Of a stretch of DNA of 64,000 nt, positions 3,534 to 38,920 are shown piece after piece (the first letter of the stretch is position 1; each line of letters starts with the position of its first letter). The stretch is from positions 2,452,691-2,516,690 of the forward strand of contig CBDCTJ010000007.1 in NCBI GenBank assembly GCA_965222115.1, read 5' to 3'. Origin of the DNA: Planctomycetota bacterium. Lineage in GTDB: Bacteria; Planctomycetota; PLA2; JAEUHO01. The notes below the pieces were generated by a model, which was given only the letters and a program-made list of their open reading frames with translations, had not been told where the DNA came from and searched no databases. The position numbers were made by a program, and so were the translations under genes.

Positions 3534-3726
3534 TGCAGGTCTCCTTGACCCCATCCCCCGGGGTCAGGAGCTACATAGGATTTGCCCGCTGCGGATGGCG
3601 CGAAACTCGGCGAAATTCTTCCGCGCGTCAGCCCTGTCCCCATTTTTAGCGGCTTCGAGTTGCTCCGACCCGCGAAATCCGAAATTTTCCGTACGATGCC
3701 GACCGAAACACGTCTGTACGGGTGTC

Positions 3727-22508: not shown

Positions 22509-23090
22509 CTAAAAGATGCGCGGGGCATTGCACTGTTCGTGAATGCTGTTGCACACTTCCGGTTGTAGGCGCAGGCCGTGGGCGAGTTGCTTGAGGTACT
22601 GCGCTTCTTTGTTCTGATCGAGGTCCAGAGTCAGTAGCGAGAAACCGTAGACCTGCTGCTCAAGTCCAAGCGGGATTTCCCAGGCGAACTCTTTGACGTC
22701 GAGCGGGCGAGCGAATTCTTCGCGCAGGAACTGCACTTCGGCTTCGGTGACGTCACCGAGTTGCTTCAGAATCGCGGTCTGCTCATTGTCGTCGAGCTTG
22801 CCATCGGACTTGGCGGCGTTCACCATGGCGCGCACAAGAATTTTGGCCTGTGCGTTATCAAGCTCGCTCTTTGGGTGTGCGGGTGCCTGAGGTGCGCCAC
22901 GGCTTTGCTCGTAGCGCGAATACGCGTCACGGGCCACACGACCAAAGTCGTCGCGTTGACGCGGCTGTGCCGGAGGAGCCGCCGCTGCTTTCTTATCGCC
23001 GCCCAAAAGGCCTTCGAGGATCTTTCCAATGCCGCCGCCGGATTGGGACTTCTTCTTGAGAAGACCACCGAGAATTTCTGCCATATCCAT
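22509..23090 (-). CDS. DUF533/TerB-like protein
   Basis: Gly-rich N-terminus (ILGGLLKKKSQSGGGIGKILEGLLGG) and C-terminal TerB-like helical region (AKILVRAMVNAAKSDGKLDDNEQTAILKQLG); family assignment from memory of architecture only. Confidence 0.45.
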   Translation of the reverse strand: MDMAEILGGLLKKKSQSGGGIGKILEGLLGGDKKAAAAPPAQPRQRDDFGRVARDAYSRYEQSRGAPQAPAHPKSELDNAQAKILVRAMVNAAKSDGKLDDNEQTAILKQLGDVTEAEVQFLREEFARPLDVKEFAWEIPLGLEQQVYGFSLLTLDLDQNKEAQYLKQLAHGLRLQPEVCNSIHEQCNAPRIF

Positions 23091-23532
23091 TTCGTACGTA
23101 CTCCAATGACGTTCAGGTCCGTCGCGCAGATTCGCGTGACGTGCTCGTTACTGTATGTCCGCTCCGGGTCCGGGGTGGGATTTGTGCATTTCTCATTTTC
23201 TAGGGCAAGTGCTTGTTCGCCGGGCGTGGGTCACCTCACGCAGAGGCGCTATGTGGCAAAGGCGCAAGGGGAAATCGGTGCCGTCTCCTACGTGGCCAGG
23301 TTTGAGGGGCCCAACTCCGCAAAGAACGAGATCCACACTCGTGACTACCGTCATCTTCGGAGGCTGAGCAACCGGGTCGGGCAATGGATCGGGCGACAGA
23401 TTAAGAATCAGCAAAACGTCCAGTTGAGCATCGCTTCGCTCCACTACATGCATCGCTCTGCGCCTCTGCAACGCGGCGTCTCCGCGTGAGGTAAATCGCG
23501 TCCAACGACCGCACTTCCCTCGCAAGCCGAAC

Positions 23533-24702
23533 CTATGAGGAACCGCCGTCCTCAACCGTTTCATAGATCCGGTACCGCTTCGTGATCATGCCACCGATGG
23601 CCTCAATCCCGGCGCGCATCTTCGCATTGTCTTCCAGCACCCAGCCACACTCGGCGCCAACGACCTTAGAGGCGCGACCACCGAGGAGGCCGCGCGTGAT
23701 GAGGGCCTCAGCAATCGCGGAACCGCGGGCCTCCGGAACGACGCCGAGAAGTACGCAGCGCGTTCGACGAACGTTTTTGAGCCCGCGCAAGAGCTTGAAC
23801 CACATGACCGGGAGCATGCGACCTCGGCCGCGATGAAGAATTCGATTGATGTCGCGCAGGAACACGCTGAAGCCCACCGGGACGCCCTTGCGCTCGGCGA
23901 CGCCGGACATGTTGGGGTCGATCAGCATCTTGAGATCCTTGGCGGCATGATCGAATTCCGCATCGGTCGTCGGGACGAAGCCCCAGTTCTTTTCCCAAGA
24001 ACGATTGTAGAGACTTCGAATGATCTTGATTTCGCTGTCGAAATTGTCGGTGTCAATGGCGCGAATCACTATGCCTTTGCGAACAAGCTGGCGATCGATG
24101 ACGCGTTTGAAGCGAGGTGGCAGAGGGAGCGACGTGGGGCACCAGTAACTTATGAGGTCCTTCACACCCACGAGGCCGGCACCCGTAACCAGCAAGTCGT
24201 AGTCCGGTCGATTGTAGGGCATCAGAATGGCCGGCGGCTCGCCGAACCCCTGAACGAGGATGCCGCAACTGTCATTCGTCGAGTAGTTGACCGGTCCGCG
24301 CATGGGCGAGAGGCCGCGTGCGTCGCACCACGCCTTGGCCGCATTGAGCAAAGCCTTTGCGGTTTCTACGTCTTCGTACGCCGCTACGTCAAAGAACCCG
24401 AAGAAGCCAATGCGATCTTCGTGGATTTCATTGTGACGTCGATTTTCGATCGCAGCAATGCGCCCGACGATCTCATTGCCGCGCCACGCAAGAAAGTGCT
24501 GTGCGTCGGCGTGCAAGAAGAAGGGGTTCTTTTTCTGGTCCATGAGCGCGGCTTCGACCATCCGGAGCGGCGGTACATAGTCGGGCCACTTCGCATTGAT
24601 CTTGTAGGTAAAGTCGATGAATGCCTTGCGCTCACGACGCCCCTGCTCGGGACGTACGACAACGGGCGTGGTGGACGGAGCATCCATGGAAGAGTCGCTC
24701 AC
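23533..24702 (-). CDS. putative N-acyltransferase, candidate bacterial ceramide synthase by context
   Basis: 389-aa soluble protein 44 nt downstream of the SPT-like gene on the same strand; no motif I can assign confidently; call rests on gene context. Confidence 0.35.
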   Translation of the reverse strand: MSDSSMDAPSTTPVVVRPEQGRRERKAFIDFTYKINAKWPDYVPPLRMVEAALMDQKKNPFFLHADAQHFLAWRGNEIVGRIAAIENRRHNEIHEDRIGFFGFFDVAAYEDVETAKALLNAAKAWCDARGLSPMRGPVNYSTNDSCGILVQGFGEPPAILMPYNRPDYDLLVTGAGLVGVKDLISYWCPTSLPLPPRFKRVIDRQLVRKGIVIRAIDTDNFDSEIKIIRSLYNRSWEKNWGFVPTTDAEFDHAAKDLKMLIDPNMSGVAERKGVPVGFSVFLRDINRILHRGRGRMLPVMWFKLLRGLKNVRRTRCVLLGVVPEARGSAIAEALITRGLLGGRASKVVGAECGWVLEDNAKMRAGIEAIGGMITKRYRIYETVEDGGSS

Positions 24703-24745
24703 GAGTCGCTCACAAATCGCTCACATGGAAATGGGATGCCGGTCG

Positions 24746-25948
24746 CTACGCCTTGACCAGTTGAAATTGCTGCGCGACGCTCCTGAACGCCTGAAGCACG
24801 AGGTCCAAATCCTCGTCGGTGTGCGTGGCCATGTACGACGTGCGCAGGAGACTTTGGCCGGGAGGTACGGCCGGGGGCAACACCGGATTGACGAATACGC
24901 CCTGCTCAAAGAGCGCGCGGTTGAACTTGAGAGTGGGTTCTTCTTCGCCAATCACCACACTCAGAATCGGGCTGCCGCCGTCGTGAATCACGTCAAGGCC
25001 CATGGCTTCAAAGCCTGCCTTCATCTTGGCCACGTTCTTCCACAGGGCTTTGCGCCGTTCAGGTTCGTCGCGAATGACGTGCAGGCACGCAAGCACGGTC
25101 GCCACACTCGACGGCGTCATGCTTGCTGAAAAAATGATCGATCGGCTGACGTGCTTGAGGAAGTGAATGACATCGGCAGGGCCGGCGATGAATCCGCCAA
25201 GGCACGCAAAGGACTTGCTAAACGTGCCAACGACGATGTCTACGTCGTCCATGACACCAAAGTGTTCGGCGGTGCCACGGCCATGTTCACCGAGGACGCC
25301 CAGAGCATGGGCATCGTCGACAATGACGCGCGCTGGGTACTGTTTCGCCAAGCGAACGATTTCAGGTAGCGGCGCGAGATCGCCCAGCATGGAAAACACA
25401 CCATCCGTAATGATGATGCGACCGCCGCATTCGGGGATTTCGGTAATCGCCAGCACGCGCTCCAGGTCATCCACGTCGTTGTGTCGATATTTCAAGAGCT
25501 TGGCGAATGACAGCCGGCAACCATCGATGATGGATGCGTGATTGTCTCGGTCGCCAAAGATGATGTCGTCACGACTGGCAATGGCAGAGATGAGGCCGAG
25601 ATTGGTTTGAAAGCCCGTGCCCGATGTAATGCACGCCTCTTTGCCAAGAAAGCGCGCGAGTTCCTCTTCCATTTCTTCATGGAGACTTAATGTGCCGTTG
25701 AGGAAGCGGCTTCCGGTGCACCCCGAACCAAACTTTGAGATGGCTTCACGGGCCGCTTCCAACACACGCGGTTCGTGCGTGAGACCGAGGTAGTTATTGG
25801 AGCCGGCCATGACGAGTTCGCGCCCGTCGATGTTGACACGCGTACCGCGTCTACTTTCCGAGATGGCCCGGAAGTAGGGGTAGATGCCCGCGGCCTGCAG
25901 GTCTTTCGCCCGCGCGTAGCGTTCGGCCTTCTCAAACGGGTCTAGCAC
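24746..25948 (-). CDS. spt: PLP-dependent alpha-oxoamine synthase, most similar to serine palmitoyltransferase
   Basis: PLP-lysine motif VVGTFSKSFACLGG (SPT-type GTFSKS); FGSGCTGSRFLNGT, DNHASIIDGC and YRHNDVDDLERVL resemble recalled Sphingomonas SPT more than Kbl or BioF; alpha-oxoamine synthase family itself is near certain. Confidence 0.65.
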   Translation of the reverse strand: MLDPFEKAERYARAKDLQAAGIYPYFRAISESRRGTRVNIDGRELVMAGSNNYLGLTHEPRVLEAAREAISKFGSGCTGSRFLNGTLSLHEEMEEELARFLGKEACITSGTGFQTNLGLISAIASRDDIIFGDRDNHASIIDGCRLSFAKLLKYRHNDVDDLERVLAITEIPECGGRIIITDGVFSMLGDLAPLPEIVRLAKQYPARVIVDDAHALGVLGEHGRGTAEHFGVMDDVDIVVGTFSKSFACLGGFIAGPADVIHFLKHVSRSIIFSASMTPSSVATVLACLHVIRDEPERRKALWKNVAKMKAGFEAMGLDVIHDGGSPILSVVIGEEEPTLKFNRALFEQGVFVNPVLPPAVPPGQSLLRTSYMATHTDEDLDLVLQAFRSVAQQFQLVKA

Positions 25949-26167
25949 AGGCGTCCTCGCGCGGCGGTTTCATCGAATCGCCCGGCTGCGCTCGATGGAA
26001 GGGGCATACTTGGATCTAGCGAGACGTGGGACCTTCGCCCAGCCCCGCCACGGGCTCGGTAAGTCTACCGATGCCGGGAGACCATGACGGCAGGCGTGCG
26101 ACCCGGCGGCGCGAATTCTGTCCGACGTCCATTGGGGACAAGCCCACCTCGGCGCGATAGTCCCTCC

Positions 26168-27157
26168 ATGCGCGTACTTGTCACCGGTGGACATGGATTC
26201 GTGGGTCAGCACCTCGTTCGCTCTCTGTTGGGGGCGGGGCATGCGGTTTCCATCCTCTACCGGCACAGCGGTCGGCCTGCCAGTCTCGACGGGCTCGACG
26301 TCGAGGTCGTCCATGGCGATTTGAACGACGGGCGAGGATTGGATGCGGCCGTCGCGGACCGAAAACGCATCTTTCATCTCGCCGGTCTGACCCGCAGCGT
26401 CACGCGCAGCCAAATGCTGCGCACAAACGTGGATGGAACGGCGCGGCTCCTCGCGGCGGCGCGCCGATCCGGATTTCGAGGGCGATTCGTATTCTGCAGT
26501 TCGCTGGCTGCGTGTTCGCCCAGTTTGGACGGCACGCCGTTGACTGAGCTGACCGCAACCATGGCGCCGCTCACGTGGTACGGCGAAAGCAAGCGCAAGG
26601 CCGAGTCACTTGTACGTCGGTGTGTCGGCGAATTCGACACATCCATCGTTCGCCCACCCGCCGTGTACGGCCCCGGTGATCGCGATTTTTTGACCTTCTT
26701 CGACAGCGTTGCTAAGGGCGTGGCGCTCGTTCCTGGCCGTCGCACGACCGCGCTGTGCAGTTTGATCTTCGCGCCGGATCTTGCCGAGGCTTTGATGGCA
26801 GTGGGGGACTCGCCGGCCACGATCGGCAAGACCTACTTCGCCGCCCATCCGGAGATTGTGTCGGTAGACGACATGATTCGTGCCGCTGAGGCGTCTATGG
26901 GTCGTAGATCCAGGCGACTGCGACTGCCCACCTCCCTTCTCAGACTCACGGGGAAGGTTACGGATCTCGTGACACAGATTACGGGTCGTGCCTCGCTCCT
27001 CGGAAGCCAGCGAATTCGAGAGGTCGCCAGTGCACATTGGGTGTGCAGCCCGGAACGCGTTCAGCGCGACACGAGTTGGCGCGCATCCACGCCGATTGCC
27101 CGTGGCTTCCCGGAGACTGTTGCGGTGTACCGCGCGCGCGGGCAGCTCAAAATTTGA
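26168..27157 (+). CDS. NAD(P)-dependent epimerase/dehydratase-family (extended SDR) protein; candidate ceramide reductase by context
   Basis: Rossmann motif MRVLVTGGHGFVGQHLV, catalytic YxxxK (WYGESKRKAE); divergent from the spt-like gene. Start placed at ATG 26168. Confidence 0.6.
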   Translation: MRVLVTGGHGFVGQHLVRSLLGAGHAVSILYRHSGRPASLDGLDVEVVHGDLNDGRGLDAAVADRKRIFHLAGLTRSVTRSQMLRTNVDGTARLLAAARRSGFRGRFVFCSSLAACSPSLDGTPLTELTATMAPLTWYGESKRKAESLVRRCVGEFDTSIVRPPAVYGPGDRDFLTFFDSVAKGVALVPGRRTTALCSLIFAPDLAEALMAVGDSPATIGKTYFAAHPEIVSVDDMIRAAEASMGRRSRRLRLPTSLLRLTGKVTDLVTQITGRASLLGSQRIREVASAHWVCSPERVQRDTSWRASTPIARGFPETVAVYRARGQLKI

Positions 27158-27210
27158 GTTTCGCCGGATGATTCGTGCGCCAACGCTGAGATCGTCCTTC
27201 CGGAACCGAT

Positions 27211-27738
27211 TTGGACGTCGTGTTTGACCTTGCTTGGGTCCGCCCCGAGAATGCGACGGTGCTACCGAATGCTCGACCCCCTCGCCGCGGACTGACGCGC
27301 TTGCGCAAACTCGCTTGCGGGCCGCTGCTGTTGCTGATCCTTTGTGTATTGGGGGGGTGTCAGAGTGAAGAAGCATTTGCGCCGCGGCCTTTGGATCAAG
27401 CGATCAAGCATCCCAGTCCCGGCGTTCGCGTGGCCGCGGTGCAGCGTGCGATACAGTCCGGTGACACAAGCGAGGTGCCGGAACTTATAGAAATGCTCGA
27501 CGATGAGGACCCAACAGTGCGGATGCTTGCATCGTCATCGCTCAAGCGCATCACGGGTCGAGACACCGGCTATCTGCCGTATGCATCCCCAGAAGTTAGG
27601 CGTTCGCAGCGGGATGCGTGGCGTTTGTGGTGGGCGTCACAACAGCAAATCGGTGACTCGGCGAGTTCGCCTCCCCTGTATCCAGTCTCAAAGCCAATGA
27701 CCATGGATTCGCCACATGGGGAGGGCATGGGTGAGTGA
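27211..27738 (+). CDS. small HEAT-repeat lipoprotein
   Basis: Signal peptide and lipobox (LACGPLLLLILCVLGGCQSEE); HEAT-like repeats (HPSPGVRVAAVQRAIQSGD, DEDPTVRMLASSSLKRITG). Start uncertain (TTG 27211, GTG 27259 or TTG ~27301). Confidence 0.5.
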   Translation: MDVVFDLAWVRPENATVLPNARPPRRGLTRLRKLACGPLLLLILCVLGGCQSEEAFAPRPLDQAIKHPSPGVRVAAVQRAIQSGDTSEVPELIEMLDDEDPTVRMLASSSLKRITGRDTGYLPYASPEVRRSQRDAWRLWWASQQQIGDSASSPPLYPVSKPMTMDSPHGEGMGE

Positions 27739-28168
27739 GCCGCAACAAATCCAGACAGAGCGGCTTGAGACTTCTCTCACCTCCAATCCACGGTGGCTTC
27801 CCGTCGTGCGTGGCATAGTGAGCGAAGCCGCCGGCGTGGTGGGACTCGATCGCGAGGCACAAGAGTCAATCGCTTTGGCGGTCAATGAAGCGTGGACCAA
27901 CGTGATTCGACACGTGTACGGCGGGCGCGAAGACGCACGCATTGACCTGGCAATTGAACTGCACCCCGACCGCCTCGCGACGTATATTACCGACTACGGC
28001 ACGTTTGTGGATCCCGGAACCATTCGGTCACGGAGGCTCGAGGACGTACGCCCCGGCGGCATTGGTGTTCACCTTATCAAGACCACCATGGACGACGTGG
28101 AGTACAAGTTGAACGAGCACGGGGGAACAACATTGTCCATGGTTCGCTATCTCGAATCGCATGCGTAG
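27716..28168 (+). CDS. anti-sigma regulatory factor / serine protein kinase (RsbW/SpoIIAB-like GHKL ATPase)
   Basis: HATPase_c layout: N-box ALAVNEAWTNVIRHVYGG, G-boxes ITDYGTFVDPGT and RPGGIGVHLIKTTMDDVEY; ~150 aa as for RsbW. Confidence 0.7.
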   Translation: MGRAWVSEPQQIQTERLETSLTSNPRWLPVVRGIVSEAAGVVGLDREAQESIALAVNEAWTNVIRHVYGGREDARIDLAIELHPDRLATYITDYGTFVDPGTIRSRRLEDVRPGGIGVHLIKTTMDDVEYKLNEHGGTTLSMVRYLESHA

Positions 28169-28225
28169 CAATTCGGCTACGTAGCGAATCGGTTGGCGCA
28201 CGCCACATGCTATGAAGGAAACCCC

Positions 28226-28567
28226 ATGAAAGTCACCAGCGAATCCCACGGGAACGGATCCGTATTTGTCGTTGAAGGTCACTTGGACATGGGGTCTACC
28301 TCAACGCTGCGCAATGAGTTGCGCGGCGCGCTCAAGCGCAAAAGCACACCGTTGGTCGTGGATCTCACGGATGTCGCGTTTATTGATTCAAGCGGCCTCG
28401 CCACGTTGATTGAGGCGCTGCAGTCGGTCTCGCACTATGGGGGTCGCATGTGCCTGTGTGGTTTGCGGCCTGAAGTCAAGCGCCTATTTGAACTTGCCCA
28501 TCTCGGAAGCATTTTCGAGGTAAAGGAAACCCGCGACCAAGCGCTTGGTCTCACGGGCCCCGCGTAG
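28226..28567 (+). CDS. STAS-domain anti-sigma factor antagonist (RsbV/SpoIIAA-like)
   Basis: STAS fold with phosphorylatable-Ser motif VDLTDVAFIDSSGLATLIEAL; good SD (GAAGGA) before ATG 28226. Confidence 0.75.
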   Translation: MKVTSESHGNGSVFVVEGHLDMGSTSTLRNELRGALKRKSTPLVVDLTDVAFIDSSGLATLIEALQSVSHYGGRMCLCGLRPEVKRLFELAHLGSIFEVKETRDQALGLTGPA

Positions 28568-28685
28568 CCATTTTCAAAATCGATTTAGATCAGGGGCAGA
28601 GAGAAACCGCCGAGTGAACTTGTGTAAGGAGTAGCGTTTTGCCGCACGGTCGCTCGCGCGTTCCGCTCGGGAAGGGACCACACTC

Positions 28686-29498
28686 GTGGCGGTCGTAGGC
28701 GGCATAGGGCGGTGGATTGAGGCCCTTGGTGGAACGGTTCTAGGGACGGTCCAGTTCCTTGGCGGCCTCGGGCTGATGGTGCGCCAGAGTGTGGGCCATC
28801 TTGTGTTGGGTCCCTTTCGCGGCCAAGGTGTACCGCGTCGCGCGTTCATGACGCAGGCTGTGCGCGCCGGCCCCAAGTCGTTGTTCATCGTATGCATCAT
28901 TAACTTCTTCGTCGGCGTGATTCTCGCGTTGATCGGTGGCGACATTCTCAATCTGCTCGGATTCAAAGAGTATGTGGGCGACCTCATCGGCGTGGGAATC
29001 GTCATGGAACTCGGCCCGCTGCTAACAGGCATCATTATGACCGGCTACATCGGGGCGGCGTTCGCTGCCGAGATTGGGACCATGGTGGTGTCGGAGGAGA
29101 TTGTCGCCTTGCGCACCATGGCGCTCAATCCCGTGCGTGTCATCGTTGCGCCACGCATGTTGGCCGTGCTCTTTATGGTTCCCTGCGTGACGATTATCGG
29201 AAATGCCGTGGGCATTCTCGGCGGCGCAAGCGTGGCTCATTCCGTGTTGGATGTATCCCCCAATACGTTTTGGGAGCATGTGTGGGCCACGTTGGCGCCG
29301 CGTCAAGTTTGGCGTGGACTCGCCAAGAGCGTGGTATTTGCGCTTCTCATCGGCGCCATTGGTTGTTTTAAGGGCTTCCGGGTGTCGGGCGGTGCGGAGG
29401 GCGTGGGCCGGGCCACCACCAGCGCGGTGGTGACTACCATTATCAGCATTGTGATCAGCGATGGGATCCTAAACTATTTGCTGCTCTATCGTTTGTAG
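28686..29498 (+). CDS. mlaE: MlaE-family ABC transporter permease
   Basis: MELGPLLTGIIMTGYIGAAFAAEIGTMVVSEEIVALRTMALNPVRVIVAPRMLA and GRATTSAVVTTII align with recalled E. coli MlaE (RELGPVVTALLFAG, MAVDPLRRVVAPRF, SRATTRTVV). Confidence 0.85.
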   Translation: MAVVGGIGRWIEALGGTVLGTVQFLGGLGLMVRQSVGHLVLGPFRGQGVPRRAFMTQAVRAGPKSLFIVCIINFFVGVILALIGGDILNLLGFKEYVGDLIGVGIVMELGPLLTGIIMTGYIGAAFAAEIGTMVVSEEIVALRTMALNPVRVIVAPRMLAVLFMVPCVTIIGNAVGILGGASVAHSVLDVSPNTFWEHVWATLAPRQVWRGLAKSVVFALLIGAIGCFKGFRVSGGAEGVGRATTSAVVTTIISIVISDGILNYLLLYRL

Positions 29499-29516
29499 GG
29501 CACGCGGAGCACAACC

Positions 29517-30956
29517 GTGTCGATGTACACAAAGAACGCCGAGTTCAAGGCCGGGGTCGTGGTCCTGCTTGCCATTCTTGGGTTCTTGGCCTTCCTGTAC
29601 TTCGCCGGTGGATCCGAGAGCCCGTGGCGCGACTACCGCTATGTGCAGTTGCGCTTTCAACCGGGTTTCCTCGCACCCCGTCCTGGCGATCCCGTTCAAA
29701 TGAATGGCGTTACGGTGGGGCGCGTTCACCATGTGAAGCAGCGGGAAGAGGTCCGTCGCAATGAGCAGTTGACGGTTGCCGATCGACGCAAGTTGGGCTT
29801 GAGGGCGGATGAGCCGGGCGAAGTGCGCGAAATGTATGTGCTGGCGACCGTAAAGATGCCCGCCGATCAGGTAATACCGCAGGGCTCGGCGGCACTGATC
29901 GATCAGAACATTGCGGGTGTGCGTCAACTGTCCCTTTTGCCGGGTGCCTCCACGGAAAACCTCACCGACGAACAGACCGCGTCGTCGCCGCTTCCGGCCA
30001 GCGAAGCGCCAGGCATCAAAGACGTCACCACCAATCTCAATGAACTGGTTGGCAAGTTGGACACGTTGGTGGTGAGTGCCGACGAAGTGTTGGTGGAGGC
30101 GCGCGACCTCATCGCGACCGTGCAGGAAAAGGTGGACGCGCTCGACACCGCCACAGTCAACGATGAAGTGAAGGTCATCGCCAAGGCGGTGCGCGAAGCC
30201 ATTGAGTCGTTGAAGGCTCGATTGGAGAGAATCGGTGCCAACATCGAAGAGGCGTCCGTTGATGCCAAGGCGATGACCAAGTCGGGCGTCGAGACGGTGG
30301 ACGCCATTCGCGATGGGTTGGACAAGAATCTCGCTTCCCTCGAAGGCGTTATCACTCGACTCGACAAGATTATTGCCAAGGCCGAACCGCAGGTCGATAG
30401 CTTTCTTGTGAGCATGAACAACATGTCGCGCGACATGGAATCGGCCGCTAAGAACTTCAAATCTTTGTCCACCGAGTTTGCTGGAATCGGGCCCGACGCG
30501 AGGCGCATACTCAATGATCTCGGCGTCGAGTTTGACGATGTAGTCAATACGTTGGGTGACATGGCGCGCAATCTGCTCGACGCCTCCGAGGATTTACGCG
30601 CCCGGCCCTGGCTGCTCACCAATAAGCCCGATCCGGGCGAGATCGCGTTCGACAACTTGCGCGCGGCGTCTCGCAACTACATGAAGGCGATGGCCGGTGC
30701 GCAACGTGCCATGGTCAAACTGAGTCAGTTGCTGGCGCGCCCCGATGTCCACGATCCGCGTGTGCGCGCCATGATTCACGCCGCCATGCAGAACTACCAG
30801 GCATCCCTGGAGAAGTACCGCCGCGACGAAGCGCGCTGGACTCGCCTTTTTGAGACGGCGCCCAAGGGCGAGGGTGCCCGTGTCCCCCCACGCAATCCGG
30901 CACGCAGTGCACACCCCGGAAATGCAAACCCCGGGAATGGCCAGCCGGGACGTTGA
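29517..30956 (+). CDS. mlaD: MCE-domain protein (MlaD/Mce family) with long C-terminal coiled-coil extension
   Basis: N-terminal TM (AGVVVLLAILGFLAFLYFAG) then MCE domain; ~300 aa of helical, coiled-coil-like C-terminal sequence; directly downstream of mlaE. Confidence 0.75.
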   Translation: MSMYTKNAEFKAGVVVLLAILGFLAFLYFAGGSESPWRDYRYVQLRFQPGFLAPRPGDPVQMNGVTVGRVHHVKQREEVRRNEQLTVADRRKLGLRADEPGEVREMYVLATVKMPADQVIPQGSAALIDQNIAGVRQLSLLPGASTENLTDEQTASSPLPASEAPGIKDVTTNLNELVGKLDTLVVSADEVLVEARDLIATVQEKVDALDTATVNDEVKVIAKAVREAIESLKARLERIGANIEEASVDAKAMTKSGVETVDAIRDGLDKNLASLEGVITRLDKIIAKAEPQVDSFLVSMNNMSRDMESAAKNFKSLSTEFAGIGPDARRILNDLGVEFDDVVNTLGDMARNLLDASEDLRARPWLLTNKPDPGEIAFDNLRAASRNYMKAMAGAQRAMVKLSQLLARPDVHDPRVRAMIHAAMQNYQASLEKYRRDEARWTRLFETAPKGEGARVPPRNPARSAHPGNANPGNGQPGR

Positions 30957-31135
30957 CTCGGATTCTCCCGAATCAGAACCATCGGACCCGAGACATCAGG
31001 ACGCGGCATCGATGATCGATTCGGCCGTGGTATCGGCGAGACGATTGTTGTGCATCTCGTACGGGGTTCTATGCTCCCAAGCCGATGAACGCCCTCACGA
31101 GGGTGCATCGATCCAACATCAACAAGGAGAGCGCA

Positions 31136-32068
31136 ATGCGCAAGGTAGGCATGATCGGCGGTGGCAATGTAGGTGCCACATGCGCGTATCAAATCGCATC
31201 CGCCGGAATGGCCGACGTGGCGATTTACGACATTTTGGAAGGCGTCCCCGCTGGCAAAGCGCTGGACATGTCGCAAGTTGGTCCGGTCTTCGGATTTGAC
31301 GGCGCGATCACCGGAAGCCACGACGTGTCCATCATTGAGGGCTCCGAAGTTGTGGTGGTAACGGCAGGCTTTCCTCGCAAGGCCGGCATGGATCGTATGG
31401 ACCTCCTGCGAAAAAACGTCGCGATTGCGCGCGCGAGCGGTGAAGCACTCAAGAAGTACGCACCCAACGCTGTGGTGATCGTGGTCACCAATCCACTTGA
31501 TGTCATGACGTGGGTCATTCAGCAGTCCAGCGGTTTTCCGGCCGAGCGTGTCATCGGCATGGCGGGCGTGCTCGATTCTTCCCGATTCTCAACATTCATT
31601 CGCATGGAACTTGGCGTGACGCCTAAGGATGTGAAAGCGATGGTGCTTGGTGGGCACGGCGACAGCATGGTTCCGCTTCCGCGGTTTAGTACCGTGAACG
31701 GTGTTCCGATCACCGAACTCATGTCGGCCGAGCGCATTGAGGCGCTTAGCGACCGCACGCGTAAGGGCGGCGCCGAGATCGTGAAGCTACTTGGTACGGG
31801 AAGTGCGTTTTATGCGCCTGGTGCCAGCGCGGCCATCATGGCCGAGGCCGTACTCAATGACAGCAAGCGCTTGCTTCCCTGCAGTTGTTGGCTCAGCGGT
31901 CAGTACGGCATCAACGACGTCTACCTCGGCGTGCCTGCCAAGCTCGGCAAGGGCGGCGTCGAGGAGATCATCGAACTCGACCTTCGTGACGACGAACTGA
32001 AGGCGCTCAAAGCATCGGCGGCAACAGTGGCCAAGGGCATTTCCGACGTTCAATCGTTGGATGCGTAG
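31136..32068 (+). CDS. mdh: malate dehydrogenase (LDH-like family)
   Basis: NAD-binding KVGMIGGGNVGATCA; VVVTAGFPRKAGMDRMDLL; IVVTNPLDVMT; AAGGAG SD upstream of ATG 31136. Confidence 0.9.
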   Translation: MRKVGMIGGGNVGATCAYQIASAGMADVAIYDILEGVPAGKALDMSQVGPVFGFDGAITGSHDVSIIEGSEVVVVTAGFPRKAGMDRMDLLRKNVAIARASGEALKKYAPNAVVIVVTNPLDVMTWVIQQSSGFPAERVIGMAGVLDSSRFSTFIRMELGVTPKDVKAMVLGGHGDSMVPLPRFSTVNGVPITELMSAERIEALSDRTRKGGAEIVKLLGTGSAFYAPGASAAIMAEAVLNDSKRLLPCSCWLSGQYGINDVYLGVPAKLGKGGVEEIIELDLRDDELKALKASAATVAKGISDVQSLDA

Positions 32069-32084: not shown

Positions 32085-33110
32085 ATGATTCGTGCCGTCA
32101 TTCTCGGTGGGACCGGCTATGGCGGCATGGAACTGCTGCGCTACTTGCTGGGTCACGCAGACGTGGAGGTTGTGGCGCTCACGAGCCGAACCGACGAGCG
32201 TCCGGTCGGTGAGCGCTACCCACATTTGCGTGGGCTGACGGATCTTCACTTTACGAAGGAATCCGAAGGCGCACTTGAGACGTTGGCGGACGCATGCGAC
32301 GTCGTGTTTTCGGCCAAGCCACACGGCGTTGGTTGCCATGAATTGCCGGCGCTCTTAGCCGCAGCACCCGAAGTGCGCGTGATCGACCTCTCAGGCGACT
32401 TTCGACTTCGAGACGCGGCGCTGTATCCAACGTGGTACGACTACGAGCATCCGTACCCCGCATGGTTGAGCAAGTCGGTGTATGGCCTCGCCGAGTGTGG
32501 ACTGCGCGACGCGATTTCGCGCGCGCGACTGGTCGCCAATCCCGGGTGCCACGCAAGCGCAACGGTGTTGGCGCTTTGGCCCGCGGTGGACGCCGGGCTG
32601 GTGAAGGGGCGCGTATCGGTTGTGAGTGTGACAGGATCGTCCGGTTCGGGGAGTTCCCCCAAAGCGGGCACGCACCATCCCGAGCGGTTTTCCAACTTTA
32701 AGGCGTATCGTCCGCTCAAACATCAACACCTGCCCGAAGTCGTTCAAGCGTTGGGTGGCGATACTCCCGTTGACTTCGTTCCCCACTCGGCGCCGGTTGC
32801 GCGGGGCATACATGTGACGGCCTTTTTGCCGGTGGACAACGCGAATCTAGAGACCGTCATGTCGGCGTACGACGACCGCTACGCCGAGGAACCGTTCATG
32901 CGTTTACGTGAAGGCACGGTTGAGTTGCGCGCCTCCATGGGTACAAACTTCGTGGACATTGGCGTTACCGTGGCAGATGGCATTGCGGTGATTGCACTCG
33001 CGCAGGACAATCTCGGCAAGGGGATGGCCGGTTCAGCCGTGCAAAATATGAACATTATGTTCGGCCTTCCTGAAATGAGCGGCCTGGATCGCGGAGGACC
33101 TGGACTTTGA
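32085..33110 (+). CDS. argC: N-acetyl-gamma-glutamyl-phosphate reductase
   Basis: N-terminal Rossmann ILGGTGYGGMELLRYL; active-site Cys region LVANPGCHASATVLAL; arg operon context. Confidence 0.85.
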   Translation: MIRAVILGGTGYGGMELLRYLLGHADVEVVALTSRTDERPVGERYPHLRGLTDLHFTKESEGALETLADACDVVFSAKPHGVGCHELPALLAAAPEVRVIDLSGDFRLRDAALYPTWYDYEHPYPAWLSKSVYGLAECGLRDAISRARLVANPGCHASATVLALWPAVDAGLVKGRVSVVSVTGSSGSGSSPKAGTHHPERFSNFKAYRPLKHQHLPEVVQALGGDTPVDFVPHSAPVARGIHVTAFLPVDNANLETVMSAYDDRYAEEPFMRLREGTVELRASMGTNFVDIGVTVADGIAVIALAQDNLGKGMAGSAVQNMNIMFGLPEMSGLDRGGPGL

Positions 33111-34369
33111 CCGCGAAGACCAATGAACCGTTGAATCCAAACGAGTCTCTGGATCCAAGAGGGGCGCGCCAACAGTTGGAAGGCGCCATTGGCGCCCTTC
33201 CACAAGAAACGCCGGCCGTCACCGCCTTGGAAGATCGCTATCAAATAAAGACCTACGCCAAGTGGGGCTTGGCGCTTGCCGCAGGCAAAGGTGCGTGGGT
33301 GGAAGACGTCACAGGGCGACGATTCCTGGACTTGTACGGCGGGCACTGCGTGGCCCTCGTGGGGCATTGCCATCCCACCCTTGTTACCGCGGTGCAGGCC
33401 CAGTGCGAGCGGTTGATGTTTTATAGCAATGCGGTCTACAGCGATGTGCGCGCGGTTGCAGTGGAGCGACTCTGCCAGTTGGCACCGGAACCACTGCAGT
33501 CGGTGTTTCTTTGCAACTCAGGTGCCGAAGCCAATGAGACCGCCCTCAAGATGGCGCGTAAGTTTACGGGGCGCCGCAACGTCGTTTCCATGAACGAGAG
33601 CTTCCATGGACGCACGCTCGGGTGCCTTGGCGCTACCGGAATTGCCAAGTATCGCGATGCCGCGTACCCGATTCCGACCGAACATCGCTACATACCGCAC
33701 GGCGACATGGACGCGGCCAAAGCGGCGGTGGGCAACGACACGGCGGCAGTCATACTCGAACCGATTCCCTCCATGGGTGGCATTCAGTGCGCGCCCGATG
33801 GCTACCTGCCGGCCCTTCGTGCGCATTGCGATGCCGTCGGCGCGCTGCTGATCTTCGATGAAGTGCAAACGGGCTTTGGGCGCACCGGAACGATATTCTT
33901 TGGCGAACACGAGCACGTCGTGCCGGATCTGATTACGGGCGCCAAAGGACTTGCCGGTGGATTCCCGGCGGGCGTTACGTTTGTGCACGAACGCATCGCT
34001 CGCACAGTGAAGAACGGCGACCAGGGAACGACATTTGGTGGGGGCCCGCTTGCGAGTGCCGCGATCGCGGCTACCGCCACTTTGATTCGCACGTTGGATC
34101 TACCCAAGAATGCCGCACACGTTGGCAAACTCCTGTCCCGCGAGCTCAGCGCACTTGAGGGCGTTCAAGCCGTAACGGGTCGCGGTCTTCTGATCGGCAT
34201 CGATTTGAATCGGCCGGCCAAGGCCATCGCGTCGGCTCTCTTCGATGCGGGCATTCTTGTTGGCACGGCGGGAGGGCGTCTCAACCAACTGCGTCTCTTG
34301 CCTCCACTGACCCTGACAGAAGGCGAAGCCTCAATGTTGATTCCCGCACTTCGTGACGCCTTGGCGTAG
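33107..34369 (+). CDS. argD: acetylornithine aminotransferase (class III PLP aminotransferase)
   Basis: LIFDEVQTGFGRTG PLP-lysine region; class-III aminotransferase layout; within arg operon. Confidence 0.8.
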   Translation: MTAKTNEPLNPNESLDPRGARQQLEGAIGALPQETPAVTALEDRYQIKTYAKWGLALAAGKGAWVEDVTGRRFLDLYGGHCVALVGHCHPTLVTAVQAQCERLMFYSNAVYSDVRAVAVERLCQLAPEPLQSVFLCNSGAEANETALKMARKFTGRRNVVSMNESFHGRTLGCLGATGIAKYRDAAYPIPTEHRYIPHGDMDAAKAAVGNDTAAVILEPIPSMGGIQCAPDGYLPALRAHCDAVGALLIFDEVQTGFGRTGTIFFGEHEHVVPDLITGAKGLAGGFPAGVTFVHERIARTVKNGDQGTTFGGGPLASAAIAATATLIRTLDLPKNAAHVGKLLSRELSALEGVQAVTGRGLLIGIDLNRPAKAIASALFDAGILVGTAGGRLNQLRLLPPLTLTEGEASMLIPALRDALA

Positions 34370-34465
34370 AGTTTCGCCATGAGCTACCGTGCACACCGAC
34401 GACGACACAGGCGCTAAGCCACTATTTTTTTCCGTCCTGTCGTCGAATCTCCTTTGGTGTGAATC

Positions 34466-35509
34466 ATGAAGCCCGCTCCTGCCACGCTCCGGCACGTCCT
34501 AAACCTCTATGATATGGATTCAGCGCGCTGGAATCGCCTACTTGATCTCTCTGAGTGCATGGCGGGTCCACTGGGTCGCGTCCATCACTTGCGCGGTAAA
34601 CGTGTAGCGATGGTCTTTTTCAATGCGTCGCTACGAACGCGGACCGCACTGGAAGTTGCGTGCTTTGATTTAGGCGCGCACGCCATCAATCTCAACGTGG
34701 GCGGTGGTTTGTGGAGCCTCGAGCATCGCGATGACGTCGAGATGGATGGGCCGCACGCGGAGCATGTGCGTGAAGGTTTTGGTGTGCTTGGTTGCATGAC
34801 GGATGCCGTGGGCGTGCGCGTGTTCGCCTCGTTGACGGATGCCACGGAAGACGTGCGCGATCCCGCACTGAATGCCATTGCAGGCGCGTCCCCGGTACCC
34901 GTGCTCAATCTCGAGTCGGCCATGACCCATCCGCATCAGGGCTTGGCGGATGCGCTTACGGTGCGTCGCCGCTATCCCGGTGAACGTGTTCGTATCGCTC
35001 TCACGTGGGCACCTCACATCAAGCCACTCCCACTCGCTGTGGCTCAGTCTGCGCTCATGGCATTTGCTCGTGAAGGTCACGAGGTGGTAGTGGCTCATCC
35101 CAAAGGCTATGACCTCGCATCGAGCGCTGTGGAACACGCCAAGCGAATTGCAATGTCGTCGGGCGGAAGTGTGGCGGTTACGCATCAGCAAGACGAAGCA
35201 TTGAACGGTGCGCGCGTGGTCTATGCCAAGAGTTGGGGGTCGCCGCAGTTCTACGGCGACGTGGACGCTTCGAAGGCTTCGTTGAGATCGCACGCCGATT
35301 GGAAGGTGAATCGTTCCAAGATAGCACGGGGCCAAGATGCGGTATTCATGCACTGTCTACCCGTTCGCCGTGGCGTCGTTGTGGATGCCGATGTGCTCGA
35401 TAGCGAAGCGAGTGTTGTTTTGGCGCAAGCCGAAGCACGTTTGCATGTTCAGAAAGCAACCCTCATGGACATCTTTGGTGTGGACGTGGGTCGAGGCCAA
35501 ACGATATGA
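34466..35509 (+). CDS. argF: ornithine-carbamoyltransferase-family enzyme, possibly N-acetyl/N-succinyl-ornithine carbamoyltransferase
   Basis: Carbamoyl-phosphate binding SLRTR, HPHQ and HCLP motifs present; the canonical ornithine-binding DxxxSMG loop is not evident (VYAKSWGSP in the equivalent region). Confidence 0.7.
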   Translation: MKPAPATLRHVLNLYDMDSARWNRLLDLSECMAGPLGRVHHLRGKRVAMVFFNASLRTRTALEVACFDLGAHAINLNVGGGLWSLEHRDDVEMDGPHAEHVREGFGVLGCMTDAVGVRVFASLTDATEDVRDPALNAIAGASPVPVLNLESAMTHPHQGLADALTVRRRYPGERVRIALTWAPHIKPLPLAVAQSALMAFAREGHEVVVAHPKGYDLASSAVEHAKRIAMSSGGSVAVTHQQDEALNGARVVYAKSWGSPQFYGDVDASKASLRSHADWKVNRSKIARGQDAVFMHCLPVRRGVVVDADVLDSEASVVLAQAEARLHVQKATLMDIFGVDVGRGQTI

Positions 35510-36426
35510 AAGACATTGGTATTCTTCGCGAAGCGCTGCCTTACTTGCGCCGCCACCGACGTCAGACCGTCGTTGTCAAGCTCGGCGGTGAAATAGCGGC
35601 CAATCCGCAAGCCTTGGACATGTTGGCCAAGAGCATTTCGTTGCTCACGCATGTCAACATTCGCATCATTACCGTGCATGGCGGTGGTCCGCAGGCCACC
35701 AAGCTTTCGGAGAAGCTCGGGCTCGAAACCAAGATGGTGCAGGGGCGTCGAATCACGGACGCAGCCACACTCGAGGTAGCCAAGATGGCATTTGCGGGGC
35801 AGATCAATGTGGACATTCTCGGTGCCCTGCGCGTTGCTGGCGTGCGCGCCGTGGGCCTGTCGGGGATCGACGCCGACATACTCATGGCCAGGCGCCGTCC
35901 ACCTTCCGAGGTGCAAGACGTGGCTACGGGGCGTAAGGAGATTGTGGACTTTGGGCACGTGGGCGACATTGTGGAGGTGAACACCGAGTTGCTTTCCCTG
36001 TTGGTGGAGCACGGCTATGTCCCGGTGATTTCGTCGCTGGGTTGTGATGACGATGGCAACGCGCTGAACGTAAACGCCGATACCGTTGCAATGGAGATCG
36101 CGCGGGACCTGCGAGCAAGCAAGCTGATTTCGCTTACAGGCGTCCCTGGGCTCCTGAAAGACAAAGACGATCCCACCAGCGTGATTTCACGATTGAGTCT
36201 GAGTGAGGCACGCACGGCGCTCAGCGATGGAACGATCCAAGGCGGAATGATTCCCAAGGTGAAGACACTGATTGACGCCGTTGAAGGCGGCGTTCGCGCT
36301 GGCATCATATTGTCGGGCCTCGATCACGACGCGCTCCTCGCCGAACTGTTTACGGACCGTGGTGTGGGCACGTTGATCGAGCGAGATGTTGATGAGAAGT
36401 CCGCGAGCCTCGGAGCCCCCGCGTGA
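35506..36426 (+). CDS. argB: acetylglutamate kinase
   Basis: Amino-acid kinase fold: VVVKLGG, ITVHGGGPQ, NVNADTVAMEIA. Confidence 0.9.
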   Translation: MKDIGILREALPYLRRHRRQTVVVKLGGEIAANPQALDMLAKSISLLTHVNIRIITVHGGGPQATKLSEKLGLETKMVQGRRITDAATLEVAKMAFAGQINVDILGALRVAGVRAVGLSGIDADILMARRRPPSEVQDVATGRKEIVDFGHVGDIVEVNTELLSLLVEHGYVPVISSLGCDDDGNALNVNADTVAMEIARDLRASKLISLTGVPGLLKDKDDPTSVISRLSLSEARTALSDGTIQGGMIPKVKTLIDAVEGGVRAGIILSGLDHDALLAELFTDRGVGTLIERDVDEKSASLGAPA

Positions 36427-37493
36427 AGAACGTGACGGAACTACTTCAGGCGATCGTACGCATTCCCTCCGTTTCTGGGGAAGAGCACGCGTGCCGCGAC
36501 TTTCTCGTTGACTGGCTAAAAGACCAGGGCGTCAAGGCGTGGTCGTCGGGGCGTAATGTCTTGGCGACCGTGGAGGGCAAGCCATCCGCCCGTGATCGTG
36601 GCCTTCTATTGCTTACCCACATCGACGTGGTTCCTGTGGGGGATGGGTGGACACGAGATCCATGGGATGGCGCGCTTGAGGACGGATTCGTGTTCGGTCG
36701 TGGTTCCAACGACGCCAAGTCAAGCGCTGCGTCGATGGCGTGGGTCGCGGCTCATGTCGACCCGGCACACATTGAGGGCCGCTTGGTTGTTGCGCTGGTT
36801 TGCGATGAGGAAACGGGCGGCGAAGGCATTGAAGTGTGTCGCGACGAGTTGCCTGCGTTCCAAGCGAGTGTGGTGGGGGAACCTACGGAACTCGATGTAT
36901 GTCCGGGGCAACGTGGTTTGTTTCGCGCAACGATTGTTGAACGCGGCAAACAGTGTCATGCAAGTCGGCCTTGGGAGGGCGCCAACGCAATTGACATGGC
37001 TGCTCGCGATATTGCCGCCATACACGAAATGGACTTGGGTGCCGCCGACGATCTGTTGGGTCCGGCAACGCTTCAAGTGACGGTGATCCAAGGTGGTACG
37101 CGACCCAATGTGTTGCCGGGAGAATGCACATTGGAACTCGACGGTCGCCCGTCGCCCACGTTTGACAATCAGGCGATGGAGCGTGCATTGAACGAAATCG
37201 CGAAGGGTGACGTGACCATTCGCAGCAATCGCTTTTTTCCGGTGCGTACGGCCAATGATGAGGAAATCGTTCGTATTGCTGTTGAGTCAAGTCCCACGGG
37301 TAACGTCCGTGGGTTCGGCGGCGTGTCGGATCTCTTTCATGTGAGCCATCATCCCGGTGTCGTCATGGGCCCCGGCACCAGTGCGGCGAGTCATGCTGCC
37401 GATGAGTCGGTCGCCGTAGAACAGCTCGATAAGGCTGTCGTCGCATACGAAAGCATCGTTCGTGCATACTTGGCCCCGGGAGGGCGCGCATAG
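36423..37493 (+). CDS. argE: M20-family metallopeptidase, acetylornithine (or acetylcitrulline) deacetylase-like
   Basis: M20 metal-binding regions LLLLTHIDVVPVGDGW, GRGSNDAKSS, ALVCDEETGGEGIE; arg operon context; substrate not resolvable by eye. Confidence 0.6.
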   Translation: MKNVTELLQAIVRIPSVSGEEHACRDFLVDWLKDQGVKAWSSGRNVLATVEGKPSARDRGLLLLTHIDVVPVGDGWTRDPWDGALEDGFVFGRGSNDAKSSAASMAWVAAHVDPAHIEGRLVVALVCDEETGGEGIEVCRDELPAFQASVVGEPTELDVCPGQRGLFRATIVERGKQCHASRPWEGANAIDMAARDIAAIHEMDLGAADDLLGPATLQVTVIQGGTRPNVLPGECTLELDGRPSPTFDNQAMERALNEIAKGDVTIRSNRFFPVRTANDEEIVRIAVESSPTGNVRGFGGVSDLFHVSHHPGVVMGPGTSAASHAADESVAVEQLDKAVVAYESIVRAYLAPGGRA

Positions 37494-38920
37494 TGGCTGT
37501 CGAGCGATCAAAGAAACGATCAAAGAAACGATCGACGAAGAAGGGCGATCCCTTGCGAGGACGGTTTTCTGAACACACGGCCGAGGCGCTCGATCGCATC
37601 AATCGGTCCTACCCCATCGATCGTCGCCTCTGGCGCGAAGACATTGAGGGCTCGCTCGCTCATGCGCGCATGCTGGGTGCAAAGGGCATTTTGAGTCAGG
37701 CATCGGTGAAACGCATCGTGAAAGGCCTCCTAACGATTCACGGGGAGTTTGAAGCCCGTACGTTCAAGGCGTGTGCAACCGACGAGGACATTCACATGGC
37801 CGTCGAACGTCGCCTCGTCGAGTTGATTGGCGACGACGGTGCACGTCTCCATACGGGTCGCAGCCGCAACGATCAAGTGGCGACGGATTTGGAATTGTAC
37901 TGCGCGCGGGCTGCCAAGCGTATTCAGGACGGGATTCGCGACGTGCAGGCGGCATTGGTTTCCGCCGCGACGGACGTGGATGACGCACTGGTGCCGTTCT
38001 ATACCCATATGCAACGTGCCCAGCCCATCGTCATGGCTCACGTGTTGCTTGCCTACGTAGAAATGCTTCAGCGTGATACGGACGCGTGTGCGTATGACCT
38101 CAATGCGTGCCCACTCGGGTCCGGCGCCGGGGCGGGCACAACCTATCCAATCGACCGCGCCATGACCGCCAAAGCGCTCGGTTTCCGTGGACCGTCTCGC
38201 AACAGTCTTGTTGGCGTGTCGTCGCGGCAAAATCTTGCCCGGCTACTATCAGGCTTTGCCGCGACCGCTACGACGCTGTCGCGCCTGGGTGGCGACATCA
38301 TTTTATGGACGACGCGCGAGTTCGGTTTTGCTCGTCTTGGTGACGATGTGTCAACGGGCTCAAGCATCATGCCGCAAAAGCGCAATCCCGATGGCGCGGA
38401 GCTTCTGCGAGGCAAGGCATCGCGAGTGATTGGCGCACTTCAGCGCGTGTTTGAGATTCAACGCGGGTTGCCGATGGGGTACTTCAAAGATCTCCAAGAA
38501 GACAAAGCGGCGCTCTTTGATGCTGAAGACACATTGCTCGACATGTTGGCCGTGGCATCCGCGATGATGCGCAGCATCGACTTTGATCGAGTGCGCATGG
38601 AGGCCGCGGTAGCGGAACCATCGGGGTATCTCATGGCGACGGAAGCCGCGGACTACCTTGTGTCTCGCGGTGTGTCCTTTCGCGAAGCCCATGAAGCGGT
38701 TGGCGCCCTCGTTCGTCTGGCCGAGACTCGGGACGTAGGGCTGGAAGCGCTCGACATCGACGACTTTAGGCGGCTGCATAGGAAGTTTGATGACGAGGTA
38801 TTCACGGTATTGGATCCCTTGACCGCCGTTAGACGTCGTCGAGCGATTGGGGGACCCTCCCCAGCCAACGTGCGTCGCGAACTTGCTCGTTGGCGCAAAC
38901 GAATTGCCTCCTCCCACTAA
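37493..38920 (+). CDS. argH: argininosuccinate lyase
   Basis: Fumarate-lyase signature GSSIMPQKRNPDGAEL; LRGRFSE aligns with the canonical LWGGRF N-terminus; the track ORF adds a Lys-rich 20-aa leader (GTG overlapping argE stop); a TTG at the L of PLRGRF would give a canonical N-terminus. Confidence 0.9.
   Translation: MAVERSKKRSKKRSTKKGDPLRGRFSEHTAEALDRINRSYPIDRRLWREDIEGSLAHARMLGAKGILSQASVKRIVKGLLTIHGEFEARTFKACATDEDIHMAVERRLVELIGDDGARLHTGRSRNDQVATDLELYCARAAKRIQDGIRDVQAALVSAATDVDDALVPFYTHMQRAQPIVMAHVLLAYVEMLQRDTDACAYDLNACPLGSGAGAGTTYPIDRAMTAKALGFRGPSRNSLVGVSSRQNLARLLSGFAATATTLSRLGGDIILWTTREFGFARLGDDVSTGSSIMPQKRNPDGAELLRGKASRVIGALQRVFEIQRGLPMGYFKDLQEDKAALFDAEDTLLDMLAVASAMMRSIDFDRVRMEAAVAEPSGYLMATEAADYLVSRGVSFREAHEAVGALVRLAETRDVGLEALDIDDFRRLHRKFDDEVFTVLDPLTAVRRRRAIGGPSPANVRRELARWRKRIASSH

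Follow-up and report, generated by a model that had tools for sequence, protein, structure and literature searches.

Three adjacent genes at the locus

The DNA analyzed here is a 64-kb stretch from a member of the Planctomycetota (hereafter the window, and the stretch for which all window-level absences reported below hold). It carries three adjacent genes that are predicted to encode the core of a bacterial ceramide pathway. The spt-like gene (positions 24746–25948, minus strand) codes for a 400-aa pyridoxal phosphate (PLP)-dependent alpha-oxoamine synthase of Pfam family PF00155, which is a predicted serine palmitoyltransferase (SPT). The bcerS-like gene on the same strand (23533–24702) codes for 389 aa when read from a GTG codon, and probably for 384 aa from an ATG at 24687. 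Its product is a tandem-GNAT N-acyltransferase and a predicted bacterial ceramide synthase (bCerS). The cerR-like gene (26084–27157, plus strand) is a 357-aa open reading frame (ORF) with a likely start at 26168 (329 aa). This gene encodes an extended short-chain dehydrogenase/reductase (SDR) of the epimerase family, and the protein is predicted to act as a 3-keto(ceramide/sphinganine) reductase.

An original prediction, made from the sequence alone, had listed these three ORFs and had placed the SDR gene divergent from the synthase gene, and all of them are present in that arrangement. The four motifs quoted for the synthase (FGSGCTGSRFLNGT, DNHASIIDGC, YRHNDVDDLERVL, and GTFSKS) likewise occur in the 400-aa translation. 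The spacing between the synthase and GNAT genes needs a small correction, from the 44 nt given originally to a measured 43 nt between the spt stop and the GTG start of bcerS, or to 58 nt if bcerS begins at Met6. The deposited form of the GNAT protein (P0001) is the 384-aa version, which starts at Met6.

The start of the SDR gene also calls for a choice. Because the GxxGxxG motif of the Rossmann fold follows directly after Met29, because more distant homologs are 326–341 aa long, and because the 357-aa form is absent from the protein collection checked, translation probably begins at Met29 (26168) to yield a protein of 329 aa. The SDR of the closest relative is annotated at 356 aa, which speaks for the longer form. 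Depending on this start, 135–219 nt separate the divergent spt and cerR genes, and the intergenic region as read from the sequence (25949–26167) is the presumed site of both promoters. A scan of positions 23000–27400 for promoters and terminators gave nothing above shuffled expectation. Similarly, a scan with the sigma-70 consensus, which is uninformative for this lineage, found no match in the spt/cerR intergenic region. The gene arrangement suggests that spt and bcerS are probably co-transcribed and that cerR would be transcribed divergently.

Affiliation of the three proteins

In Pfam, the window synthase matches Aminotran_1_2 (PF00155) with 188 bits. Its top NCBIfam model is the CFB-type SPT equivalog NF047600 (510.8 bits, cut-off 640), and the two other SPT equivalogs give 416.8 bits (NF047599, Beta SPT, cut-off 500) and 345.3 bits (NF047603, Alpha SPT, cut-off 670). 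The remaining scores are 399 bits for a BioF/Kbl subfamily model, 381.9 for the Kbl model NF005394 (cut-off 460), 381.6 for BioF, and 320.8 for the Kbl model TIGR01822 (cut-off 493). When sequences of the PDB were searched with phmmer, the SPT of Sphingobacterium multivorum came first with 427 bits (about 52% identity over 386 aligned residues), and the next SPTs were those of Sphingomonas wittichii (310 bits) and Sphingomonas paucimobilis (291 bits). A broad-specificity Thermus enzyme called ThAOS (chain 8s1y, deposited as 8-amino-7-oxononanoate synthase/2-amino-3-ketobutyrate CoA ligase) scores 292 bits, a cysteate acyltransferase 254, Kbl about 250, and BioF about 215. The Spt protein of Escherichia coli BL21 is 42% identical to the window synthase.

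A phylogeny of the synthase had been suggested as a check on the original prediction. The neighbor-joining (NJ) tree built here has 76 members, which are the window synthase, 63 GNAT-adjacent synthases from related loci, a synthase from a Rubrobacter plasmid, four SPT references (S. multivorum, S. paucimobilis, and S. wittichii from solved PDB structures, and Spt from the E. coli BL21 genome), and a set of outgroup enzymes (E. coli and Ralstonia Kbl, ThAOS, two BioF proteins, HemA, and CqsA). One clade of 68 members with 75% bootstrap support holds the window synthase and all four SPT references, whereas Kbl, ThAOS, BioF, HemA, and CqsA all lie outside it. The planctomycete subclade has 100% support. 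Readings of the synthase as BioF, HemA, or CqsA were dropped on the basis of the model and PDB scores and the position in this tree.

The active site was compared at 16 residues of the S. multivorum SPT, chosen from PMC10196870. In the alignment, 15 of these are identical in the window synthase, and the sole change (Met271 to Ile) is also an isoleucine in other SPTs. His137, Asp211, His214, and Lys245 of the window protein, the last of them within GTFSKS, align with His138, Asp210, His213, and Lys244 of the S. multivorum enzyme. The residues that contact the serine carboxylate or hydroxyl in S. multivorum SPT (Asn52, Gly80, Ser81, His138, and Ser243) are all kept. The Kbl proteins depart from SPT at Gly80, Ser81, Ala212, and Ser243, and both of those compared have Ser-Val and Gly at positions where the SPTs and the window synthase have Gly-Ser and Ser. 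By sequence comparison, the window synthase is thus assigned to the characterized bacterial SPTs and not to Kbl, BioF, HemA, or CqsA. The alignment also provides residue-level evidence that an SPT-like lineage without a curated model retains the serine-binding active site.

The 389-aa protein has only a weak GNAT match in Pfam (24.4 bits), and searches by sequence against solved structures and against NCBIfam models returned no match. Its relationship emerges from E. coli BL21, whose YghO protein (ECD_02850) is 35% identical to it over the full length (367 residues, E 3e-66). YghO is the published ortholog of the Caulobacter ceramide synthase bCerS/Aca, CC_1154 (PMC9386255), with 44% identity at 98% coverage and an E value of 1e-107 (Table S2, PMC9386255). 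A structure model of the window protein has a tandem GNAT fold. The protein, which the original prediction had put forward as a putative acyltransferase and candidate ceramide synthase, is therefore a full-length YghO homolog with a GNAT fold in the model, and we classify it as a predicted bCerS/Aca (YghO-family) homolog.

For the SDR, Pfam reports Epimerase (PF01370, 112 bits) and 3Beta_HSD (86 bits), and the expected motifs are readily located as GGHGFVG (GxxGxxG, residues 34–40 of the 357-aa ORF) and YGESK (YxxxK). The window protein is 32% identical to the E. coli BL21 epi/CerR ortholog ECD_02852 with an E value of 2e-38, a similarity on par with that between ECD_02852 and the Caulobacter protein CC_1164 (34% identity, 94% coverage, E 7e-38). 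It is also 34% identical (E 2e-43) to the SDR of a Rubrobacter operon in which a synthase, a GNAT, and an SDR gene again stand together. Its matches in the PDB are generic extended SDRs, including NDUFA9/NUEM-type proteins, and none is described as a threonine dehydrogenase. By eye, the N-terminus is free of a hydrophobic signal-like segment, an impression that depends on the uncertain start codon; the Caulobacter CerR protein has been reported to be periplasmic.

The SDR is also where a reading of the locus as a threonine catabolism unit can be judged. According to this alternative, the synthase would be Kbl (glycine C-acetyltransferase), the SDR would be a GalE-like L-threonine 3-dehydrogenase, and the GNAT gene would be unrelated to both. 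Genes for Kbl and for an SDR-type threonine dehydrogenase (Tdh) do adjoin in some bacteria, for example on a Ralstonia megaplasmid, and the NCBIfam Kbl model gives the synthase the 381.9 bits noted above. However, this score is below both the Kbl cut-off of 460 and the scores of the two best SPT models (510.8 and 416.8 bits), the SPT clade does not include Kbl or ThAOS, and the Ser-Val and Gly residues of Kbl are replaced by Gly-Ser and Ser in the window synthase, as in SPTs. The window SDR reaches only 38.5 bits with the Tdh encoded beside kbl in Ralstonia, versus 127–139 bits with CerR-type SDRs. Furthermore, threonine catabolism would leave unexplained the tight linkage, across phyla, to a YghO-family GNAT gene. 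With the synthase below the Kbl equivalog cut-offs and the SDR unlike GalE-like Tdh, this explanation is effectively refuted. The SDR accordingly passes the check suggested for it as a homolog of the CerR/Epi orthologs rather than as a relative of SDR-type threonine dehydrogenases.

A predicted ceramide pathway and its known counterparts

We consider it probable, at roughly 80%, that the three genes encode the core of a bacterial ceramide pathway. In the proposed sequence of reactions, Spt, a soluble PLP enzyme, would condense L-serine with a long-chain acyl-CoA to form 3-ketosphinganine. The tandem-GNAT bCerS homolog would then N-acylate the amino group from an acyl thioester, and the extended SDR homologous to CerR would use NAD(P)H to reduce the 3-keto group, which yields dihydroceramide. 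Acylation probably comes before reduction if the pathway follows the model established for Caulobacter, where this is the reported order (bioRxiv 10.1101/2023.11.08.566215; PMC11087976). The evidence for a ceramide pathway consists of the homology of the three proteins, the conservation of the active site, the fold, and the linkage of the genes across phyla, and from these we infer the substrates, the order of reactions, the product, and expression.

The original prediction had remarked that no acyl carrier protein (ACP) or acyl-ACP synthetase gene is adjacent, and this holds across the whole window. Searches with tblastn, carried to E ≤ 10, found no homolog of the E. coli BL21 sphingolipid ACP (AcpR) or of its fatty acyl-AMP ligase, with nothing below E 0.5. 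The locus therefore lacks two components of the five-gene proteobacterial system (also called the “Rhodobacteria” system), which comprises spt, acpR, aasR, epi, and aca. In alpha-, beta-, and gammaproteobacteria, spt has been described as accompanied by a dedicated ACP and acyl-ACP synthetase (PMC9386255). Because both are thus described as a feature of proteobacterial clusters, their absence does not weaken the case for ceramides. A fatty acyl-AMP ligase gene lies near the GNAT gene in just one of the 80 related loci examined (L050). With neither an ACP nor an acyl-ACP synthetase gene nearby, and with the synthase being closest to the acyl-CoA-using Sphingobacterium SPT, we infer that the acyl donor is acyl-CoA and that the predicted SPT depends on it.

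Several observations weigh against the assignment to ceramide synthesis. With the synthase, none of the three NCBIfam SPT equivalogs reaches its curated cut-off, and neither does any other NCBIfam model. It is best described as an SPT-like lineage without curation, outside the three curated subfamilies, whose amino-acid specificity is a prediction. Deep nodes of the tree are weak (15%–40%), and the tree is an NJ tree only, without the cysteate acyltransferase of sulfonolipid synthesis. The likeness to the Caulobacter proteins is bridged via the E. coli BL21 orthologs. No gene for head-group addition, a kinase, a desaturase, or another modification enzyme was found near the trio among the larger ORFs of the window, and for this reason the locus is taken to encode the ceramide core only. 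Finally, a literature search found no report of sphingolipids measured in a cultured planctomycete. The envelopes of these bacteria are unusual, and the locus consequently lends itself to heterologous expression or lipidomics.

Some of these points would also fit a trio that makes a sphingolipid-like lipid from an amino acid other than serine. In that case, the synthase would take alanine or glycine to give 1-deoxy- or 1-desoxymethyl-ceramides, cysteate to give capnine and sulfonolipids, or some other amino acid, and N-acylation and keto reduction would follow as before. Beyond the shortfall at every SPT equivalog cut-off, this idea draws on the published statement that the same enzyme set yields 1-deoxyceramides if alanine replaces serine (ISME J 2024 supplement). 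S. multivorum SPT likewise accepts alanine and glycine at low efficiency (PMC10196870). In addition, the solved cysteate-C-fatty acyltransferase is a detectable relative of the synthase at 254 bits. That score is nonetheless far below the 427 bits of SPT and no better than that of Kbl, and all five serine-contact residues are retained. We therefore regard a non-serine product as unlikely, and continue to favor dihydroceramide as the predicted product.

The pathway was defined in Caulobacter crescentus, whose genes are Spt CC_1162/CCNA_01220, bCerS/Aca CC_1154/CCNA_01212, and CerR/Epi CC_1164/CCNA_01222. Like this system, the window has the same three enzyme families, related over their full length through the E. 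coli BL21 orthologs, and the same predicted chemistry of condensation, N-acylation, and keto reduction. Unlike it, the window has no dedicated AcpR and AasR, and its genes are contiguous, whereas Caulobacter bcerS stands apart from spt, judging by the locus tags (CC_1154 versus CC_1162–1165). The window synthase is also nearer to the Bacteroidota type of SPT than to the alphaproteobacterial ones (427 versus 291–310 bits). With the acyl-CoA-dependent Bacteroidota-type SPT of S. multivorum (PDB 3A2B, 8GUH), it shares a near-identical active site and the absence of Arg378 of the Sphingomonas PPATP loop, which is Leu in the window protein and Val in S. multivorum. The two differ in that the window synthase falls under the curated CFB SPT cut-off. 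In sphingolipid-producing Bacteroidota, moreover, the three genes are not clustered (PMC11334938), unlike the adjacent genes of the window.

E. coli BL21(DE3) carries the cluster yghO-aasR-epi-acpR-spt (ECD_02850–02854), whose YghO, Epi, and Spt proteins share 35%, 32%, and 42% identity with their window counterparts and whose GNAT gene similarly stands divergent from or next to the other cluster genes. This cluster has five genes, including those for an ACP and a fatty acyl-AMP ligase, and is flanked by lptF/lptG paralogs; the window has neither. In the BL21(DE3) genome (2989282–2997066; L001/L002), the sphingolipid cluster is followed by genes annotated lptG and lptF, which are presumably extra copies. 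Their position fits a link between lipopolysaccharide (LPS)-transport homologs and sphingolipid transport in Caulobacter, the subject of a 2026 preprint.

The known range of the pathway was later widened bioinformatically by a metagenome study of the Black Sea, which reported Spt-like proteins in 138 Planctomycetota metagenome-assembled genomes, in many cases with bCerS and CerR encoded close by (Ding et al., ISME J 2024, PMC11334938). Its “clade B” consists of Spt-like proteins beyond the known SPTs and was set largely by the presence of CerR and bCerS on the same scaffold (PMC11334938). The window trio looks like a further instance of this kind. Earlier publications already cover the pathway, how widely it is distributed, and the prediction that Planctomycetota have it, and the locus is confirmatory. 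It adds a clean, contiguous spt-bcerS-cerR locus to the bacteria predicted to make ceramides, and the comparisons given above add an enzyme-level analysis of planctomycete proteins, which is not part of the study by Ding et al. The lack of an ACP and a synthetase sets the arrangement apart from the five-gene proteobacterial version, and its contiguity sets it apart from the dispersed genes of Bacteroidota.

Related loci and genomic surroundings

Species-representative genomes were scanned with an alignment of the GNAT protein, which returned 320 relatives, and the linkage counts given here cover the best 80 loci (labeled L with a number). Neighboring genes were proposed by greedy ORF clustering, which is noisy and admits spurious long ORFs in GC-rich DNA, and were then checked with Pfam; 11 of the 80 loci are incomplete on one flank. 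The loci come from Planctomycetota, Bacteroidota (mostly Saprospiraceae), Actinomycetota (Solirubrobacterales), Chloroflexota, Acidobacteriota, Myxococcota, Gemmatimonadota, Rhodothermota, and others, so that at least eight phyla are named. Of the 80 loci, 64 have an SPT-like gene no more than 600 bp from the GNAT gene, 42 have a CerR-like SDR at a distance of up to 4 kb, and 40 have both. The logic of synthase, ceramide reductase, and ceramide synthase that underlay the original prediction is thus upheld by the three homologies and by the recurrence of the trio in many phyla.

The window proteins have their closest relatives in metagenome-assembled genomes labeled Planctomycetota. The trio is kept in 14 of the 18 Planctomycetota loci even as the identity of the GNAT protein falls to about 50%, and this retention implies purifying selection. 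This bears on whether the genes might be silent, or of minor or condition-specific use, in an organism that makes little or no sphingolipid. E. coli BL21, which has a complete cluster, lends some weight to that thought. Retention of the trio despite such divergence argues against it, however, as do three intact ORFs with conserved catalytic residues, and we judge silent or marginal genes very unlikely compared with a working pathway.

Neighbors of the trio in other lineages form an independent functional association. In Saprospiraceae loci (L028:4022–6715, L032:10405–11730, and L026/L030/L035/L043), the trio stands beside genes for a sphingolipid delta-4 desaturase (PF08557/Lipid_DES plus FA_desaturase), a PAP2_3-family membrane protein, and myo-inositol-1-phosphate synthase, a combination that suggests synthesis of unsaturated inositol-phosphoceramides by such clusters. 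In Pfam, enzymes of the inositol-phosphorylceramide-synthase type make up the family PAP2_3. The GNAT or SDR gene has a member of this family, coding for about 300 aa, as its direct neighbor in loci of Gemmatimonadota and Acidobacteriota and in some of those from Saprospiraceae (L036:10111–11229, L045:5466–6371, L049, L054, L037, L040, L041, and L052), and the product of this neighbor is a candidate ceramide head-group transferase. In the cultured species Rubrobacter radiotolerans, plasmid 1 (191 kb) carries the alpha-oxoamine synthase, GNAT, and SDR genes as an operon with a gene for an LTA-synthase/sulfatase-family protein (L090, NZ_CP007515.1 14230–19822). The synthase there is 52% identical to that of the window, and the GNAT protein is annotated as a “hypothetical protein.” This operon adjoins type I-D CRISPR-Cas genes.

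Other lineages depart from the arrangement of the trio. In all 12 Actinomycetota loci, which are from Solirubrobacterales (L038, L048, L055, L058, L060, L068–L070, L079, L081, L083, and L084), the SPT-like and GNAT genes are transcribed divergently with hardly any space between them, and there is no CerR-like SDR within 4 kb. These organisms may use another reductase or may encode the reductase elsewhere. In all six Myxococcota loci (L050, L059, L061, L063, L077, and L086), the GNAT homolog is not beside an SPT-like gene. One of them (L050) has an adjacent, divergent gene for a fatty acyl-AMP ligase homolog that is 34% identical to the E. coli protein. Two loci (L073:8001–10350 and L053:938–3400) seem to have a pair of YghO-family GNAT genes in tandem, with the window GNAT and E. 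coli YghO matching different adjacent positions. In L073, the nearest synthase shares only 35% identity with that of the window, and the NJ tree places it with HemA.

Directly after cerR, the window continues with a block on the plus strand (27211–30956) that encodes a HEAT-repeat protein, an RsbW-like protein (HATPase_c_2), a STAS protein, an MlaE permease (235 bits), and a 479-aa coiled-coil MCE-like protein. The last of these has a sub-threshold MlaD/MCE match (20.2 bits, cut-off 25.1), and the block contains no ABC ATPase gene. The MCE-like gene is followed by mdh (31085–32068) and by an arginine-biosynthesis cluster (32085–38920, plus strand), which is syntenic with relatives and has Pfam matches to ArgC-like, acetylornithine-aminotransferase-like, OTCase, amino-acid kinase, M20 deacetylase-like, and argininosuccinate lyase proteins. 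Fifteen Planctomycetota loci share most of the block after cerR, with gene order kept; in one of them (L023), the RsbW-like gene was undetected. In three loci (L012, L016, and L024), the MlaE and MCE-like genes lie instead downstream of the GNAT gene, and a single inversion accounts for this order.

One could imagine that the trio and the HEAT, RsbW-like, STAS, MlaE, and MCE-like genes form a single unit, in which a dedicated ceramide-trafficking system would be controlled by partner switching, by analogy with the LptF/G paralogs that have recently been linked to the transport of sphingolipids in Caulobacter. We think this quite unlikely. Because the conserved block also includes housekeeping genes (mdh and arginine biosynthesis), its synteny reflects shared ancestry and is not evidence of function, and the Mla-like neighbors were left out of the predicted ceramide system.

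On the other side, just downstream of the GNAT gene, lies a gene for a DUF533/TerB-like protein (22509–23090, minus strand). The closest relative (L003) is the only one with this gene in the same place, which it does not occupy in planctomycete loci that are more distant. Farther away in the window, an 1155-aa ORF (3595–7062, plus strand) combines N-terminal ECF-type sigma-70 regions 2 and 4 with a long C-terminal extension that carries several CarboxypepD_reg repeats, and a neighboring 818-aa ORF (478–2934, minus strand) has the same repeats. On the minus strand at 53649–55659 and 62471–63970 are genes for GT4 and GT9 (heptosyltransferase-family) glycosyltransferases and for an MsbA-like fused ABC transporter, and these families suggest that a region for the LPS core lies some 30 kb away from the trio.

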